Assembly (NCBI GenBank): GCA_963714085.1
Contig: OY970229.1
Coordinates: 632,392-696,391, forward strand
DNA length: 64,000 bases
DNA from: an uncultured Candidatus Micrarchaeota archaeon
GTDB taxonomy: Archaea; Micrarchaeota; Micrarchaeia; Anstonellales; Bilamarchaeaceae
Direction of reading: 5' to 3'
The translations under genes and the position numbers were made by a program. The notes beneath the pieces were generated by a model. That model ran no database searches and was not told the origin of the DNA. It saw only the letters and a program-made list of their open reading frames with translations. Below are positions 3,076-8,445 of the stretch, in pieces. Every line of letters begins with the position of its first letter. Position 1 is the first letter of the stretch.

Positions 3076-3097
3076 GCTTTTGTTCGAACAAAGGACC

Positions 3098-4099
3098 ATG
3101 GAATACGCCGTCAGCGTGAAAAAGCTCTCGAAAAAATACGGGGATTTCCTCGCCCTGGACAAAGTGGACCTGGACGTCGAGGCGGGAGAGCTCTTCGCGC
3201 TGCTGGGGCCCAACGGAGCCGGCAAGACGACGCTCATGCGCATACTCACCACCCAGCTCGAGCCCAGCGGCGGGGAGGCGTTCGTGCTCGGCAAGAACGT
3301 GGTCAGCCAAGGCGCGGATGTCAGGCGCCTCGTGAGCTATGTGCCGCAGGAGATGAGCGTGTGGACGGAAATCAGCGGCTATGAGAACCTGCTCATCTAT
3401 TCGAAGATATACGGGGTGCCGGCGTCTGATAGGAAGAAACTCATAGCTGATGCCCTCGCGCTCATGGAACTGGAGGATGTGGCGAACCATCTAGTCAGCA
3501 CGTACTCCGGCGGAATGATACGCAAGCTCGAGCTCGCATCGGCCACCATGATAAATCCCGGCATGCTTTTCCTGGACGAGCCGACCATCGGGCTCGACCC
3601 GTCCACAAGGAAGACTGTATGGGAGAGGCTCAAGACCCTGAACCGGGAGCGCGGGATCAACGTGTTTTTCAGCACCCATTATATGGACGAGGCCGGGACC
3701 TACGCGGACAAGATAGGGATAATCAACCGCGGGAGGGTGGTCACGGTCGCTTCGCCCGAGGACCTCAAGCGCTCGGTGGGCGACGACAGCATAGAGATAG
3801 AAACGGATATCCCGCTGAGCAAGCGGGCGCTGGACGACCTGAGGGCGCTCGACGGCATCAGCAAGGCGGAAGCCGAAGGCAACACGCTCAGGGTGATGGC
3901 CAAGGACAGCGCCCTTTCCCTCAACTCCATAATCTCCGCGCTCATCGCTGACAAAGTCAATGTGCACAGGGTGAACGCTTCGAAGCCGACCATAGACGAC
4001 GCATTCCTGAAATACGCCGGCACCAAGGACATGGAGGGCGGGCAGCGGGGCTCCCTCGCGGAGCTCAAGAGCACGAGAAGGAGGATAGTGAGGGGCTGA
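3098..4099 (+). CDS. ABC transporter ATP-binding protein (ABC-2/DrrA-like)
   Basis: Walker A GPNGAGKTT, signature YSGGMIRKLELA, Walker B LLFLDEPTIGLD, H-loop STHYMDEA. Confidence 0.9.
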   Translation: MEYAVSVKKLSKKYGDFLALDKVDLDVEAGELFALLGPNGAGKTTLMRILTTQLEPSGGEAFVLGKNVVSQGADVRRLVSYVPQEMSVWTEISGYENLLIYSKIYGVPASDRKKLIADALALMELEDVANHLVSTYSGGMIRKLELASATMINPGMLFLDEPTIGLDPSTRKTVWERLKTLNRERGINVFFSTHYMDEAGTYADKIGIINRGRVVTVASPEDLKRSVGDDSIEIETDIPLSKRALDDLRALDGISKAEAEGNTLRVMAKDSALSLNSIISALIADKVNVHRVNASKPTIDDAFLKYAGTKDMEGGQRGSLAELKSTRRRIVRG

Positions 4100-4101
4100 G
4101 C

Positions 4102-4866
4102 ATGAGGGATACCATACGCATAATCCTTTCCATGATAGAACTCGAGGTCAGGAGGCTCCTCCACGACCAGACCGAGATATGCCTCAGGGCGGTACAGCCC
4201 CTGCTCTGGCTGCTGATCTTCGGGCACGTGGTCGGTTCGCTAAACACCATCCCGACCGGCAATATCCCATACACGGATTACATAATGCCCGGCGTGCTGA
4301 TACAATCCACAACAACCATCGCCATATTCTTCGGGCTGATAATAATATGGGAGCGCGAATCCGGCATACTCAAGAAGCTGGTCGCCTCGCCATCACCCAA
4401 ATTCGCCATAGTCGCGGGCAGGTCCATGGCAGCCGGTACGCGGGCGATGTTCCAGGCGGTGTTCATCGTGCCGTTCGCCATATTGATCGGCGTGAGCGTC
4501 CTTCTGAACCCCATCTACCTCTTAGGGGCCGCGGCAGTGGTCTTCATCGCGTCCAGCGGGTTCGCGGCGCTTTCAATACTCATAGCGTCCATACTCAAAT
4601 CCAGGGAGCGCTTCATGGGCCTAGGCCAGGTGATAATACTGCCCATGTTCTTCGCGAGCAGCGCCCTCTACCCGATATCTTCTATGCCGCCGCTCCTCCA
4701 GACGCTGGCGCATCTGAACCCCATGACTTACATGGTGGACGCCTGCAGGGGGCTGCTCATAACGGGCAACCTGTCCGGGCTGGGTACCGACATGCTGGTC
4801 ATCCTCGTTTTCGACGCGGTTTTGATCGGGCTCGCCACTGTGAGCTTCAAGAGGATAATAGAATAG
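4102..4866 (+). CDS. ABC-2 type transporter permease
   Basis: 254 aa with six predicted TM segments. Immediately follows the ATPase (2-nt gap). ABC-2-like topology. Confidence 0.85.
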   Translation: MRDTIRIILSMIELEVRRLLHDQTEICLRAVQPLLWLLIFGHVVGSLNTIPTGNIPYTDYIMPGVLIQSTTTIAIFFGLIIIWERESGILKKLVASPSPKFAIVAGRSMAAGTRAMFQAVFIVPFAILIGVSVLLNPIYLLGAAAVVFIASSGFAALSILIASILKSRERFMGLGQVIILPMFFASSALYPISSMPPLLQTLAHLNPMTYMVDACRGLLITGNLSGLGTDMLVILVFDAVLIGLATVSFKRIIE

Positions 4867-4917
4867 GCGGGACGTTCGATGGTTTATAAAACTAAGCGAC
4901 AAACAACATATCCATCC

Positions 4918-5044
4918 GCAGGAGTAGCGAAGCGGTCAAACGCGCCAGACTCAAGATCTGTTTGACTCCGTGTTCCCGTTTCAATCGGGAGATGGGAAAT
5001 CTGCTGGCCTAGCGCCTTCGAAGGTTCAAATCCTTCCTCCTGCA
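4918..5044 (+). tRNA. tRNA-Leu (anticodon CAA, 4952-4954) with an intron of about 43 nt in the anticodon arm
   Basis: Acceptor GCAGGAG/CTCCTGC. D arm GCG-AAGCGGTCAAA-CGC. Anticodon loop CTCAAGA. Long variable arm. T arm GAAGG-TTCAAAT-CCTTC. Discriminator A. Intron about 4956-4998, but the junction is ambiguous because ATCTG occurs on both sides. Confidence 0.8.
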
Positions 5045-5045
5045 T
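5033..5045 (+). repeat. Left copy of a 13-bp direct repeat (tRNA-Leu 3' end, att-like)
   Basis: cttcctcctgcat at 5033-5045 is repeated exactly at 5934-5946. Confidence 0.6.
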
Positions 5046-5126
5046 CATCATTTTGGTTCGGGATTGTAGCCATTGGGCAGAATTCTGCCCAAAGGGGCAC
5101 GGACCTAAAAATAGACATTCATACTC

Positions 5127-5738
5127 TTAATTCATGTACTGCGATTGCCACTTTATAAATTCCGTAAATTTATCTTCCGGAAGAAATTTTCTTGCATATG
5201 CTGTGTGTAACTGTACTGCTTTATTATGGGCCTCGTCTAGTGAGAACTGGTCTGCAAAAACAAATTCCGCTTCTTTTAATTCGTGGAAAAATACTATGTC
5301 TCGAAAATCTTTAGGTACTCCTTCCCACACCCAAATAGAAAGGCTTTGACCCCTACCAGTATCGCTTGTAATTCTGTATAATCCTGGATTGTCTTGATTA
5401 ACTAATCTGCCTTCGGTGTGTTCTAAACTTCTATAAATTTTATATGGAATTCTTCCATAACGCATAAACCCTTTCGGATTTTCAAAAGTAGGCAATCTTT
5501 CAATATTTTCTTCAGTACTGCCCATATGATCCACCATGGGACGTTCTGTCTTAGTGCAATGACGTTTCTCTGATGCGTGGACTTTTCGATTTTTCAGTTG
5601 GTCGTCCATATACTTTGGCATAAAAGTTATTATGTCAATAAATGTTTTTAAATGTATGTAATAATTCTCGACGGACCGGCAAAACACCTCTCGGTCTCTC
5701 GTTACCCTTGTACTCGCCTTGATTGGCTCACCTTTCAC
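5127..5738 (-). CDS. Hypothetical protein encoded in the AT-rich islet
   Basis: 203-aa ORF in a region of clearly lower GC than its flanks. No family recognised. An internal Met (MPKYMDD) is an alternative start. Confidence 0.45.
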   Translation of the reverse strand: MKGEPIKASTRVTRDREVFCRSVENYYIHLKTFIDIITFMPKYMDDQLKNRKVHASEKRHCTKTERPMVDHMGSTEENIERLPTFENPKGFMRYGRIPYKIYRSLEHTEGRLVNQDNPGLYRITSDTGRGQSLSIWVWEGVPKDFRDIVFFHELKEAEFVFADQFSLDEAHNKAVQLHTAYARKFLPEDKFTEFIKWQSQYMN

Positions 5739-5933
5739 TCAGTAAAAAACAGCTGAATTTTAGAAAAACTGGCAAGACCTAGCTTTATATGCGTCTCTCA
5801 TCAGAGTGGTCCTCGGTTGTGAGGTCAGGGAGTTTCCTAAGACTCGAACCTGAGGTTCAATGCAGTTCGTGAGAGTCGAACCAAAAGGTTCGGGACAGTA
5901 AATCGGTTCTGTTCCGAGTCCTGGTCTCGGCAT

Positions 5934-5946
5934 CTTCCTCCTGCAT
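5934..5946 (+). repeat. Right copy of the 13-bp direct repeat (att-like)
   Basis: cttcctcctgcat, identical to the tRNA-Leu 3' end. It sits at the point where base composition returns to high GC. Confidence 0.6.
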
Positions 5947-6048
5947 TCCGATTCCCCGGACCGCGTCGCTTCGAGGCACGGGCCATGAGCGATGCGAGGC
6001 TTTTAGATAGCATAGCGCATCAAGAATGATTGGCAGAGGGAAGAGACA

Positions 6049-6237
6049 ATGAAGAAGGATTCGTTAGCCAATCTCGCGATGGATACCCTCATAGTCCTGG
6101 CAGGGTTCGCCATCGCCATGGTCGCGGCCGGGGAGTTCTTCGTCAACAGGGATCCGGCCGTTCTGGTGGTTTTCCTTTTCGGATTCATAGTCGTCTGCTT
6201 CGGGATGGGTAGGCGGATGGCGGCCAGATGGTACTAG
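6049..6237 (+). CDS. Small two-TM membrane protein (hypothetical)
   Basis: 62 aa with hydrophobic LIVLAGFAIAMVAAG and VLVVFLFGFIVVCFG. No homology recognised. Confidence 0.35.
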   Translation: MKKDSLANLAMDTLIVLAGFAIAMVAAGEFFVNRDPAVLVVFLFGFIVVCFGMGRRMAARWY

Positions 6238-6316
6238 AAGGTGCTGATTCATCTCCGGCCAGCGGAGGACTCTGCCTGCGGCAATATTATAAAAACGAAC
6301 ACCCCAACAGCCATCC

Positions 6317-6889
6317 ATGGAAAAGCTCGACATAGACAAAAAGACCACGGCGCTCGTGGTGATAGACCTGCAGAAGGGGATAGTCGCGAGGACCACGGTA
6401 CCGCACGACACGAAAACGGTCGTCGCCAACGCTGCTAAACTCGTCAACGCCTTCAGGGCGAACGGCATGCCAGTCTTCCTGGTCCACGTATCCTCCTCTG
6501 GGCCGGAGCGGCTCAACCCTGTGACCGACGAGAAATGGACCATGCCGGCCGGAATGCCGAAAGACTGGAACGAGTTCGTGGACGAGATGAGGCCGAAGGA
6601 ATCCGACATAGTGATTACGAAGAAACAATGGGGCGCGTTCTACGGCACGGATCTGGACCTCCAGCTCAGGAGGAGGGGCATGCGCACCATCATCCTCTGC
6701 GGCATAGCGACCAACTACGGGGTGGAGAGCACCGCCCGTTTCGCCTACGAGTATGGCTACCAGCAGCTGTTCCCGGAGGATGCGATGTCTGCGATGTCCG
6801 AGGAAGCCCACAGGGCATCAGTCAATTTCGTCTTAAAGAGGATGGGGAGGGTGAGGACCACGGATGAGATAATCCGGGCCCTGGGATAG
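6317..6889 (+). CDS. Isochorismatase-family cysteine hydrolase
   Basis: TALVVIDLQKG, ITKKQWGAFYGTDLDLQLRRRGMRTIILCGIATNYGVEST: Asp-Lys-Cys catalytic pattern of the isochorismatase/nicotinamidase fold. Confidence 0.85.
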   Translation: MEKLDIDKKTTALVVIDLQKGIVARTTVPHDTKTVVANAAKLVNAFRANGMPVFLVHVSSSGPERLNPVTDEKWTMPAGMPKDWNEFVDEMRPKESDIVITKKQWGAFYGTDLDLQLRRRGMRTIILCGIATNYGVESTARFAYEYGYQQLFPEDAMSAMSEEAHRASVNFVLKRMGRVRTTDEIIRALG

Positions 6890-6954
6890 GCTCCTTGTTT
6901 CCCTGACCCTGGGATCCAGCCAATGTTTATAACGCCCGCGCGCGAGAAGCATCC

Positions 6955-8445
6955 ATGCTCGCGTCCGTAAACAGGGTATTCGTGGCTGTCCTCGTCGCGC
7001 TTGCGCTCTGCGGCATAGGCATGAGCCTGCTCGTCATAGCCACGGATTTCCTCGGCGCAGAAACGGAGAGCGGCTTCAGCTCGATGCAGCTGAGCACCGC
7101 GGTCTCGATCGCCACCGTCCTGCCGTCCGCGCAGCCAGCCGACTCCCCTTACAACCTGAACATCACCGTGCTCACTCCCAGATTGGAACGCGGGGACCGG
7201 GTGAGCCTTGAGGCGTATTCCGGAGGGAAGCTGGAGACGGAGAGTGACTGCATCAACGACTCCGGCTATGAGACGGACGCTTATGTCGGCATGACGAACA
7301 TATCCTGCGGACTCGGGCTCCCCTACGGCTACAACAGCAGCCAGGAGTTCGACATCTACGCGCTGGTCCACGGTGCGAAAGGCGACATGTATTCCGGCCC
7401 CTATCGCATGCACGTCGGATGGTCCGCATACGAGCAGAACCTGGAGAGGGCCACCGTGCTCATGCTGGCCATCGTGTGCTGCGCGTACCTGCTGCTCGTG
7501 TTCCCGGTCGCCTTCCTGCTCTTCGACCAGGGCATGAAGACGGAACACCCGGGGGCGTGGGAAGGCGAGTACACGCTCGAGTCCCTGTTCCACCCGTTCA
7601 AGGGCGGCGCCACGATGCTCCAGAAATTCGAGTCGTTCCTGGTGTCCCCCTACTTCTGGGGTCTCGAGGTCGTCGGCGTAGTGGTCCTGCTGTTTTATCT
7701 CTTCGTCTCTGCGGATGCCTGGAGGAGCGTCCCGGTCTTCGCCTCGTTCGTCCTTTCCGGGCTCATCGCATTCGTCGTCCCGTTCCTCTGGTGCGCGGCA
7801 TTCTGGTACGCGGATTTCAGGAGGCGCGCGCCGCTGCGCATGATGATGACGTTCTTCCTGTGGGGCTGCATGGCGGCTCTCATGGCCGTGGGCATAAACA
7901 CCTTCTGGGGCGCGGCGTTCGAGCTCCTGGGCCTGGGCTCCATCGGCGCCGTGGTGGTCGCCCCGTTCACGGAGGAGCTTTTCAAAGGCAGCGGGCTCGC
8001 CCTGCTCTCCGAGCACAACGACTACAGCTCCGTCGAGGCCGGCCTGGTGTTCGGGTTCGCAATAGGCATGGGATTCTCGTTCATAGAGAACTGGATGTAC
8101 CTCCTAAGCAATCCATTCAGCGCGGACATCTGGGGCTGGCTCGCCGTGTTCCTGCTGCGCTCCGTGCTGTTCTCGGCGGACCACGGGGTGTACACCGCCA
8201 TAACCGGAGGCATCATCGGGCTTCTCAAGGAAAGGAGGTACGCGGCTCCGGCCCTCGGCCTCGTACCCGGGGTGCTCATCGCGTCCGTGCTCCACGCAAT
8301 CCACAACTCCGGCGCGCCCCTAGCGGACATGTTCGGCCTTGGCGGCAGCCTCGCCTATTTCTGCATACTCCTTCCGCTGGTGGATTACGGAGCGCTCCTC
8401 CTGCTGCTTGCCATCTTCGCATGGGCGGTGCTCAGGAAAAAATAG
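6955..8445 (+). CDS. PrsW-family intramembrane metalloprotease with a ~170-aa N-terminal extracytoplasmic domain
   Basis: C-terminal multi-TM region with FTEELFKGSG (EExxK), FSADHGVYTAITGG and SVLHAIHNS (HxxxN) motifs. Confidence 0.75.
   Translation: MLASVNRVFVAVLVALALCGIGMSLLVIATDFLGAETESGFSSMQLSTAVSIATVLPSAQPADSPYNLNITVLTPRLERGDRVSLEAYSGGKLETESDCINDSGYETDAYVGMTNISCGLGLPYGYNSSQEFDIYALVHGAKGDMYSGPYRMHVGWSAYEQNLERATVLMLAIVCCAYLLLVFPVAFLLFDQGMKTEHPGAWEGEYTLESLFHPFKGGATMLQKFESFLVSPYFWGLEVVGVVVLLFYLFVSADAWRSVPVFASFVLSGLIAFVVPFLWCAAFWYADFRRRAPLRMMMTFFLWGCMAALMAVGINTFWGAAFELLGLGSIGAVVVAPFTEELFKGSGLALLSEHNDYSSVEAGLVFGFAIGMGFSFIENWMYLLSNPFSADIWGWLAVFLLRSVLFSADHGVYTAITGGIIGLLKERRYAAPALGLVPGVLIASVLHAIHNSGAPLADMFGLGGSLAYFCILLPLVDYGALLLLLAIFAWAVLRKK

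Follow-up and report, generated by a model that had tools for sequence, protein, structure and literature searches.

A tRNA-Leu-bounded islet in a Micrarchaeota genome as a probable integrase-less member of a family of site-specific integrated elements

The islet downstream of tRNA-Leu(CAA)

The window analysed here is a stretch of 64,000 nucleotides (nt) from an uncultured Candidatus Micrarchaeota archaeon, whose genome consists of one contig (C1) of 1.57 Mb with 57% guanine plus cytosine (GC); it corresponds to C1:632392-696391, and positions given without the prefix C1 refer to the window. Its subject is an islet of 0.9 kb (5046-5946) that follows a tRNA-Leu gene, contains a single gene, and had been taken in a preliminary description for a decayed or miniature element integrated at the tRNA gene (Table 1). 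The tRNA carries a long insertion after the anticodon loop. Judged by the anticodon context CUCAAGA it is a tRNA-Leu(CAA) with an intron of about 43 nt, and it is 95% identical to the tRNA at the same place in another genome of the genus (G001). Because of this intron, ARAGORN with default settings reports no tRNA in the window; Rfam and ARAGORN with the option -i both detect the gene, but the latter labels it Pro.

The 13-mer CTTCCTCCTGCAT occurs exactly at both borders of the islet, where it represents the 3' end of the tRNA. These are its only two copies in the window, and no third match appears across the 64 kb even if one mismatch is allowed. The repeat is only 13 nt long and might thus be a coincidence around an ordinary AT-rich orphan gene. 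However, this explanation is scarcely credible, because two copies of the 13-mer arose in 0 of 100 dinucleotide shuffles of the window and because the sequences at either side of the islet have homologs among the element ends of other genera (see below). In the whole genome the 12-mer CTTCCTCCTGCA is found six times. Two of these sites are the 3' ends of tRNA-Leu genes, with the anticodons CAA (in the window) and UAA (C1:498325), and the remaining four are repeats located behind these tRNAs, namely the right repeat of the islet and three copies in tandem behind tRNA-Leu(UAA).

The composition of the islet deviates from that of its surroundings, with a GC content of 0.405 for 5046-5933 compared to 0.58 for the rest of the window on both sides. 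Its earlier characterization as AT-rich holds for this average but not for the final 160 nt before the right repeat, where GC reaches 0.50. A tblastn search with six integrases of the element family described below detected neither an integrase nor an integrase fragment in 4000-8000, in agreement with the first reading of the sequence, and the nearest match to Pfam PF00589 is located hundreds of kb away.

The only open reading frame (ORF) of the islet had been noticed before and codes for 203 amino acids (aa). Its relatives are proteins of about 145 aa that align only with residues 68-203, and the conserved part of the ORF has a GC content of 0.365. The protein family is small, comprising 110 cluster representatives at E <= 1e-3 in a search of 1.84 billion proteins, and comparisons with Pfam, PHROG, PADLOC, and the PDB sequences gave no match. 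Within the family H85, E86, E89, and H104 are nearly invariant and constitute an HExxE...H motif. In an AlphaFold2 model built from 43 sequences (predicted local distance difference test, pLDDT, 92.5; a model from 7 sequences was poor, with pLDDT 66) a four-stranded sheet is followed by three helices that bear these four residues. The model has no significant fold neighbour in the PDB; comparison with a viral library yielded consistent weak fold matches to SprT-like and IrrE/ImmA-like metallopeptidase domains (E 0.007-0.1). The modelled protein may thus, at low confidence, represent a minimal zincin-like fold with a variant HExxE...H site.

This cargo gene is not part of a conserved core, since of 175 other genomes in the order only 1 carries it. 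Its relatives are scattered in metagenome-assembled genomes (MAGs) of Micrarchaeota and Nanoarchaeota, where they reside beside housekeeping or nucleotidyltransferase genes. The contigs with homologs have no tRNA nearby and also lack the arm sequence that forms the right end of the islet; the cargo is therefore independent of the element ends, and is a foreign and rare accessory gene that moves independently of them. Most relatives stem from MAGs of the DPANN group; one adjoins a serine recombinase (L054), and two adjoin nucleotidyltransferase genes (L056, L059).

Table 1. Features of the islet in the window and of the tRNA-anchored loci elsewhere in the same genome.
Feature	Position	Strand	Basis
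tRNA-Leu(CAA) gene, integration target; last 12 nt presumably supplied by the element	4918..5044	+	Rfam RF00005, 53.2 bits
Putative attL core, left copy of the 13-bp repeat (tRNA positions 62-73 plus 1 nt)	5033..5045	+	exact repeat
Left end of the element (P' arm) with TTTTGGTTCGGGA motif and palindrome GGGCAGAATTCTGCCC; conserved to ~5101	5046..5126	+	likeness to G065 and G091 junctions
Cargo gene, 203-aa open frame; part common with relatives 5130-5537 (136 aa)	5127..5738	-	homologs
Right arm, 5' module: TATA-like box TTTATATG (5784-5791), block TCAGAG (5801-5806), hairpin CCTCGGTTGTGAGG (5811-5824)	5775..5860	+	nhmmer
Degenerate inverted copy of the tRNA-Leu 3' end (TGCAG..GAGAGTCGAACC), probable fossil of an inverted att site	5861..5882	+	module position in G024 and G091
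Right arm, hairpin part: palindrome CGAACCAAAAGGTTCG, hairpin CGGGACAG/CTGTTCCG (5891-5916), hairpin CCGAG/CTCGG (5914-5930)	5877..5933	+	repeat search, alignment of 12 arms
Putative attR core, right copy of the 13-bp repeat, presumably the displaced original tRNA 3' end	5934..5946	+	exact repeat
Three-unit tandem array downstream of tRNA-Leu(UAA), split by repeats of its 3' end	C1:487073-498410 (L004 2074-13411)	-	
tRNA-Leu(UAA) array, 8.7-kb unit: aminotransferase, tetratricopeptide repeat (TPR)-glycosyltransferase, two radical S-adenosylmethionine (SAM) genes, oxidoreductase, kinase			
tRNA-Leu(UAA) array, 1.86-kb unit: fluoride riboswitch, then Na_H_Exchanger-family gene (Na+/H+)			Rfam RF01734, 41.6 bits (riboswitch)
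tRNA-Leu(UAA) array, 0.67-kb unit: DUF4389 gene			
tRNA-Leu(GAG) locus with 20-kb unit; integrase (284707-285906) at its far end, 96 nt from the core	C1:282948-304665		
tRNA-Glu(CUC) locus: 405-aa integrase, cargo, arm-like modules at 1312521, 1314106, and 1315052	C1:1308139-1315150		
tRNA-Thr(GGU) repeat locus	C1:159331-160222		
tRNA-Lys(UUU) repeat locus	C1:1472737-1473562		

Conserved ends and the units they bound

The left end of the islet including the core is 94% identical over 69 nt to the junction between tRNA-Leu and the integrase gene of an element in another genus (G065). This likeness starts at the left repeat, extends 56 nt past the tRNA, and stops at about position 5101; junctions in G091 are also similar. 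The G065 element is a complete unit of 3.7 kb that consists of tRNA-Leu, the gene of a 405-aa tyrosine recombinase (PF00589 plus a zinc ribbon), small ORFs, and a right arm that terminates in the core. The same arm, a sequence of about 170 nt, ends the islet. In its 5' module a TATA-like box (consensus CTAGCTTTATATAG) is followed after about 10 nt by a conserved TCAGAAC block and then by a short hairpin. The 3' module contains a degenerate, inverted copy of the tRNA-Leu 3' end, two overlapping hairpins, and finally the core in sense orientation. The GGTTCGGGA motif of the left end recurs in the hairpin part of the right arm, and the motifs of this part are candidate recombinase-binding sites.

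Two more copies of 5775-5933 are present in the same genome (C1:487765-487917 and C1:489635-489794; about 70-72% identity), and all three terminate in CTTCCTCCTGCAT. The arm of the window falls into a sub-family that also comprises the arms of two other genomes, G056 and G041. An nhmmer profile built on 15 copies matches its 5' module at E 2.8e-19. This module is conserved in six to seven genera, and it also adjoins the att cores of elements at tRNA-Glu. Arms were identified in 17 of the 99 genomes of the host's family, including that of the window, and in 7 of its 23 genera; none was found in 77 genomes from other families of the order, and the arm motifs had no match in viral contigs. The last ~9 nt of the arms vary between genomes together with the acceptor stem of the local tRNA (CCTCCTGCA, CCCCTGCA, CCCCGGCA, CAGGGTGCA). 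In G024 and G091 the 5' module is situated directly downstream of, and antisense to, an intact tRNA-Leu (UAA, GAG, or UAG), which explains the fossil inverted tRNA end within the composite arm.

The stretch that had been singled out as hairpin-rich thus is a member of a conserved repeat family, and it folds better than shuffled sequences (z -3.2). Its folding, the pairing of TGCAG at the 5' end with CTGCA at the 3' end, the TATA-like box at a fixed distance from the conserved block, and a run of T after the core in several copies would be in line with a small-RNA gene that has its own TATA box. The 13-mer would then mimic the acceptor end of tRNA-Leu, and the AT-rich gene would be an unrelated insertion. 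This explanation is very improbable. In an RNAalifold analysis of 12 copies the covariation term was +0.31 and double changes affected 3 of 18 pairs, which amounts to negligible covariation, and an E-value scan of 4850-6100 against Rfam retrieved no family matching the arm. Moreover, the last nucleotides track the local tRNA, arms are invariably preceded by a tRNA or core and delimit units some of which have integrases, and the conserved left end would be left unexplained. Because of the negligible covariation and the lack of an Rfam family, the arm is treated as a DNA-level feature with putative recombinase-binding sites and a promoter-like box. That the arm is coding, like a part of the split integrases of SSV-type elements, is ruled out by indels of 1, 2, 5, and 7 nt between the copies, by differing frames, and by the absence of tblastn matches.

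Besides G065, integrase-bearing units with the same arm occur in G071 and G008. Both ends of the islet are homologous to the ends of integrase-bearing elements located at tRNA-Leu genes in other genera. The integrases of this family are intact and separated from the core by 96-200 nt. A metagenome contig (L068, Ga0315268_10008655) contains arsenic-type cargo, the arm, the core, and, 115 nt further on, an integrase of the same family; the cargo, an SBF/ACR3-like gene, a SAM methyltransferase, and a low-molecular-weight phosphatase, exemplifies adaptive genes on such elements. Ten arm-bounded units could be delimited, this number referring to units whose two borders could be placed; three have an integrase, and seven are devoid of any integrase trace. 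Two further metagenome contigs (L066, L067) provide more integrase-less units. None of the three arm-carrying metagenome contigs is circular by terminal overlap.

The genome of the window itself encodes three integrases of this family, which are 44-62% identical to the G065 enzyme; one of them shares 72-75% identity with the enzymes of G071. Their genes occupy C1:284707-285906, C1:1287825-1289132, and C1:1308419-1309636. They are located after tRNA-Glu(CUC), after tRNA-Asn, and at the far end of the 20-kb unit at tRNA-Leu(GAG). This 20-kb unit is followed by an integrase-less unit of 1.66 kb that repeats both its ends. Likewise, repeats of the tRNA-Glu 3' end at 1314199 and 1315138 bound an integrase-less unit of 0.94 kb, and according to tblastn none of the three units in the tandem array behind tRNA-Leu(UAA) has an integrase. 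An intron-aware tRNA scan additionally revealed 12-mer repeats of the tRNA 3' end 807 nt after tRNA-Thr(GGU) and 750 nt after tRNA-Lys(UUU), two loci without a recognisable arm. In total, integrase-less units with intact ends exist at five tRNA loci of this genome. The homology of the ends and the tandem arrays of the same build support the initial view of the islet as a decayed or miniature element that targeted a tRNA gene. As a separate observation, the tRNA-Glu(CUC) locus displays an inverted repeat (CACTCAGATAA/TTATCTGAGTG) on both sides of its core.

Turnover at the site and origin of the islet

In G001, the order of a gene for a secreted protein (186 aa), tRNA-Leu(CAA), and a gene for a membrane protein (496 aa) is syntenic with the window, and the islet is absent from this frame. 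Relative to G001, the window has 1.84 kb of extra sequence upstream of the tRNA (ABC transporter genes, 3083-4916) and 1.87 kb downstream, the latter consisting of the islet and of 5947-6914, which encodes an isochorismatase and a membrane protein of 62 aa. In G001 the tRNA is instead followed by 0.75 kb of unrelated sequence. In a second genome of the genus, G002, a partial core (CCTGCA) lies about 50 nt past the tRNA and precedes the left end of a different element type. The site thus is polymorphic among close relatives, one of which is devoid of the islet while the other has the end of another element. Because both differ from the window at this position, the tRNA-Leu(CAA) site is a hotspot of turnover, and the islet does not date back to the ancestor of the genus.

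Three further observations concern the same region. The segments 3083-4916 and 5947-6914 have a host-like GC content (0.575-0.585) and may be older acquisitions at the hotspot. The orthologous tRNA-Leu(CAA) genes contain extra introns, with one in the T-loop in G001 (L011 525-703) and apparently three introns in G002 (L019 1330-1606). In both genomes a 13-nt copy of the tRNA 5' end (GCAGGAGTAGCGA) is found about 70-140 nt upstream of the tRNA-Leu(CAA) gene.

We consider it probable, with moderate confidence, that 5046-5946 is a non-autonomous, integrase-less member of a site-specific element family that targets the 3' ends of tRNA-Leu genes in this archaeal family, and that it resembles the cis-mobilizable elements (CIMEs) of bacteria. 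A tyrosine recombinase of the integrase family with about 400 aa and a zinc-ribbon tail would have carried out strand exchange in the terminal 12-13 nt of tRNA-Leu(CAA). After integration, the copy brought by the element would complete the tRNA and form attL, and the displaced original would form attR. Such a unit would have retained the conserved left end and the right arm, with one foreign low-GC accessory gene between them; it may have arrived without an integrase or have lost it later. Since the unit lacks a recombinase of its own, any further movement must use an integrase supplied in trans. Excision and reintegration might be mediated by the enzyme of an autonomous relative, and the three integrases of this family encoded elsewhere in the genome would be possible sources.

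The absence of a recombinase together with the retention of both ends implies that the islet is either a non-autonomous element that can be moved in trans or a fixed deletion derivative. In the latter case, an element like that of G065 would have integrated, an internal deletion or replacement would have removed the integrase and other genes and fused a foreign gene between the ends, and the islet would now be an immobile scar. This origin is a possibility to be taken seriously but somewhat unlikely. Several observations speak for it and against an element that is still mobile. The genome has no cognate, G065-type integrase adjoining a tRNA-Leu(CAA) or tRNA-Leu(UAA) gene. The likeness of the left end to G065 breaks off abruptly at about 5101, only 26 nt before the 3' end of the cargo gene, and this gene is clipped there, the protein stopping about 10 residues before the ends of its relatives, which would also fit an illegitimate deletion or fusion. 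The arm of the window is the most divergent of the three copies in its genome, a second copy of this islet was found nowhere in the material searched, and the loss of integrases after integration has been described for archaeal integrated plasmids (reviewed in PMC8371274). The comparison with close relatives is weakened as well. The sequence after the tRNA in G001 matches neither the islet nor the right flank of the window, and the polarity of the insertion is therefore judged by synteny rather than by a clean empty site. The exact empty-site pattern also had 0 matches in metagenome contigs, a collection from which near-identical records may be missing. Hence, of the comparison proposed in the preliminary description, the absence of the islet from genomes of the same genus was borne out, but a clean empty junction was not recovered.

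Against a dead remnant, however, the two 13-bp repeats have stayed identical, motifs of relatives that appear active are preserved at both ends, the arm fits a sub-family conserved in two other genomes, and no fragments of an integrase pseudogene are left. Furthermore, integrase-less units with intact ends recur at the five tRNA loci of the genome and make up most of the delimited units elsewhere, which would be unusual for random decay. On account of the perfect repeats, the conserved sub-family motifs, the lack of integrase debris, and the recurrence of such units, an element that can be moved in trans seems the better-founded explanation, and we hold it with moderate confidence.

A broader scheme can be envisaged, although it is doubtful. 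The conserved arm and the tRNA-derived core might define a cassette system of this archaeal family. In such a system, a small number of integrases acting in trans would capture units of one to few genes, mostly devoid of an integrase, at tRNA genes and would stack and exchange them there. The TATA module of the arm would act as a promoter, and only in a circle or tandem, across the att core, would it be connected with the integrase or with the following unit. The fluoride exchanger, the arsenic-type genes, and the HExxE protein of the islet would be examples of the cargo, and the system would amount to a gene-capture platform in small archaeal genomes comparable to tycheposons or integrons.

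The promoter part of this scheme is a hypothesis derived from the sequence layout: the TATA module faces the core and, in a circular or tandem form, would point across it at the 5' end of the integrase gene. The order module, core, integrase is physically present in L068 and at C1:284451-284707, and a module directed toward the integrase is implied by the arrangement of genes in G065, G008, and the tRNA-Glu unit. The element of G071 does not fit, since module and integrase diverge there. In addition, every integrase has a TATA-like box of its own, and the direction of the putative promoter is ambiguous from the neighbouring genes, most of which read toward the arm. Regulatory elements located across attP from the integrase gene are familiar from sib retroregulation in phage lambda and from the junction promoters of circularised insertion sequences (IS) or Tn916-type elements. 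As in those systems, the putative regulator would be linked to the integrase only in the circular or tandem form; the TATA box of the arm, however, is putative in both direction and activity, and the arrangement in G071 departs from the pattern.

Relation to known integrated elements

Elements of this general kind are already known, as tRNA-targeting elements with tyrosine recombinases, tandem re-use of sites, loss of integrases, CIMEs, and islands built by tycheposons have all been described. Our search of the literature retrieved no description of this particular element family or its arm. By itself the islet is an ordinary genomic scar with one orphan gene in a little-studied lineage. It is also one visible unit of a lineage-specific, tRNA-targeting set, most units of which lack an integrase but keep both recombination ends, and little has been written about how such small archaeal genomes gain accessory genes. 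If such units still move in trans, they would offer this group a simple route for the exchange of single genes, and the conserved arm would be a sequence handle for finding further cassettes in metagenomes.

Three other types of mobile DNA were considered and rejected. A partitioning element of the SSV type, with its 'suicidal' integrase (PMC7253208), would not account for the locus, as there are no integrase fragments at either end and the integrases of the family are intact; the elements differ from the SSV type because the att site lies outside the integrase ORF. Integron gene cassettes do not match either, given that the arrays are anchored at tRNAs, the integrases are not positioned like IntI, and the arm ends in a tRNA-derived core. 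Finally, the islet lacks terminal inverted repeats and its direct repeat equals the tRNA end, which argues against a miniature inverted-repeat transposable element (MITE) or another IS-derived miniature element.

Closer counterparts exist among archaeal integrated elements. Integrases of the pNOB8 (non-partitioning) type, tandem integration, and integrase loss have been reviewed (PMC8371274), and cryptic integrated elements with tyrosine recombinases are on record for Thaumarchaeota (PMC6563490). They share with the elements studied here the tRNA 3' end as target, short direct repeats, an intact integrase beside att, and arrays that result from re-use of the site. The present family is described in neither publication.

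In bacteria, the CIMEs found beside integrative and conjugative elements (ICEs) in streptococci (ICEberg catalogue, PMC6323972; see also PMC5704250 and PMC7563491) resemble the islet in having att flanks that stem from the target gene, in lacking genes for recombination or transfer, and in the relationship of their ends to those of autonomous elements at the same site. The islet has att-like sites on both sides and no genes for recombination or transfer in between. CIMEs beside ICEs depend for their movement on an integrase provided in trans, as proposed here for the islet. CIMEs also accrete in tandem with autonomous elements. This arrangement is not seen at the locus of the islet, which is alone at its tRNA, but elsewhere in the genome it is displayed by sister units, at tRNA-Leu(GAG) and at tRNA-Glu. 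Further differences are the archaeal host, the different family of integrases (about 400 aa with a C-terminal zinc ribbon), and the lack of a known conjugation module, and mobilisation of the islet is putative.

Tycheposons, which build tRNA-anchored genomic islands in Prochlorococcus (bioRxiv 10.1101/2020.12.28.424599), likewise combine a tyrosine recombinase and a tRNA target with niche-related cargo, represented here by the fluoride riboswitch with its exchanger, the arsenic-type genes, and glycosylation genes. Stacking, partial tRNAs, integrase-less remains, and a small, streamlined host genome are common to both. The archaeal elements belong to a different lineage, use a different integrase, and contain no replication module that we could discern, and most of their units are bounded by a conserved promoter-like arm, a feature not described for tycheposons.

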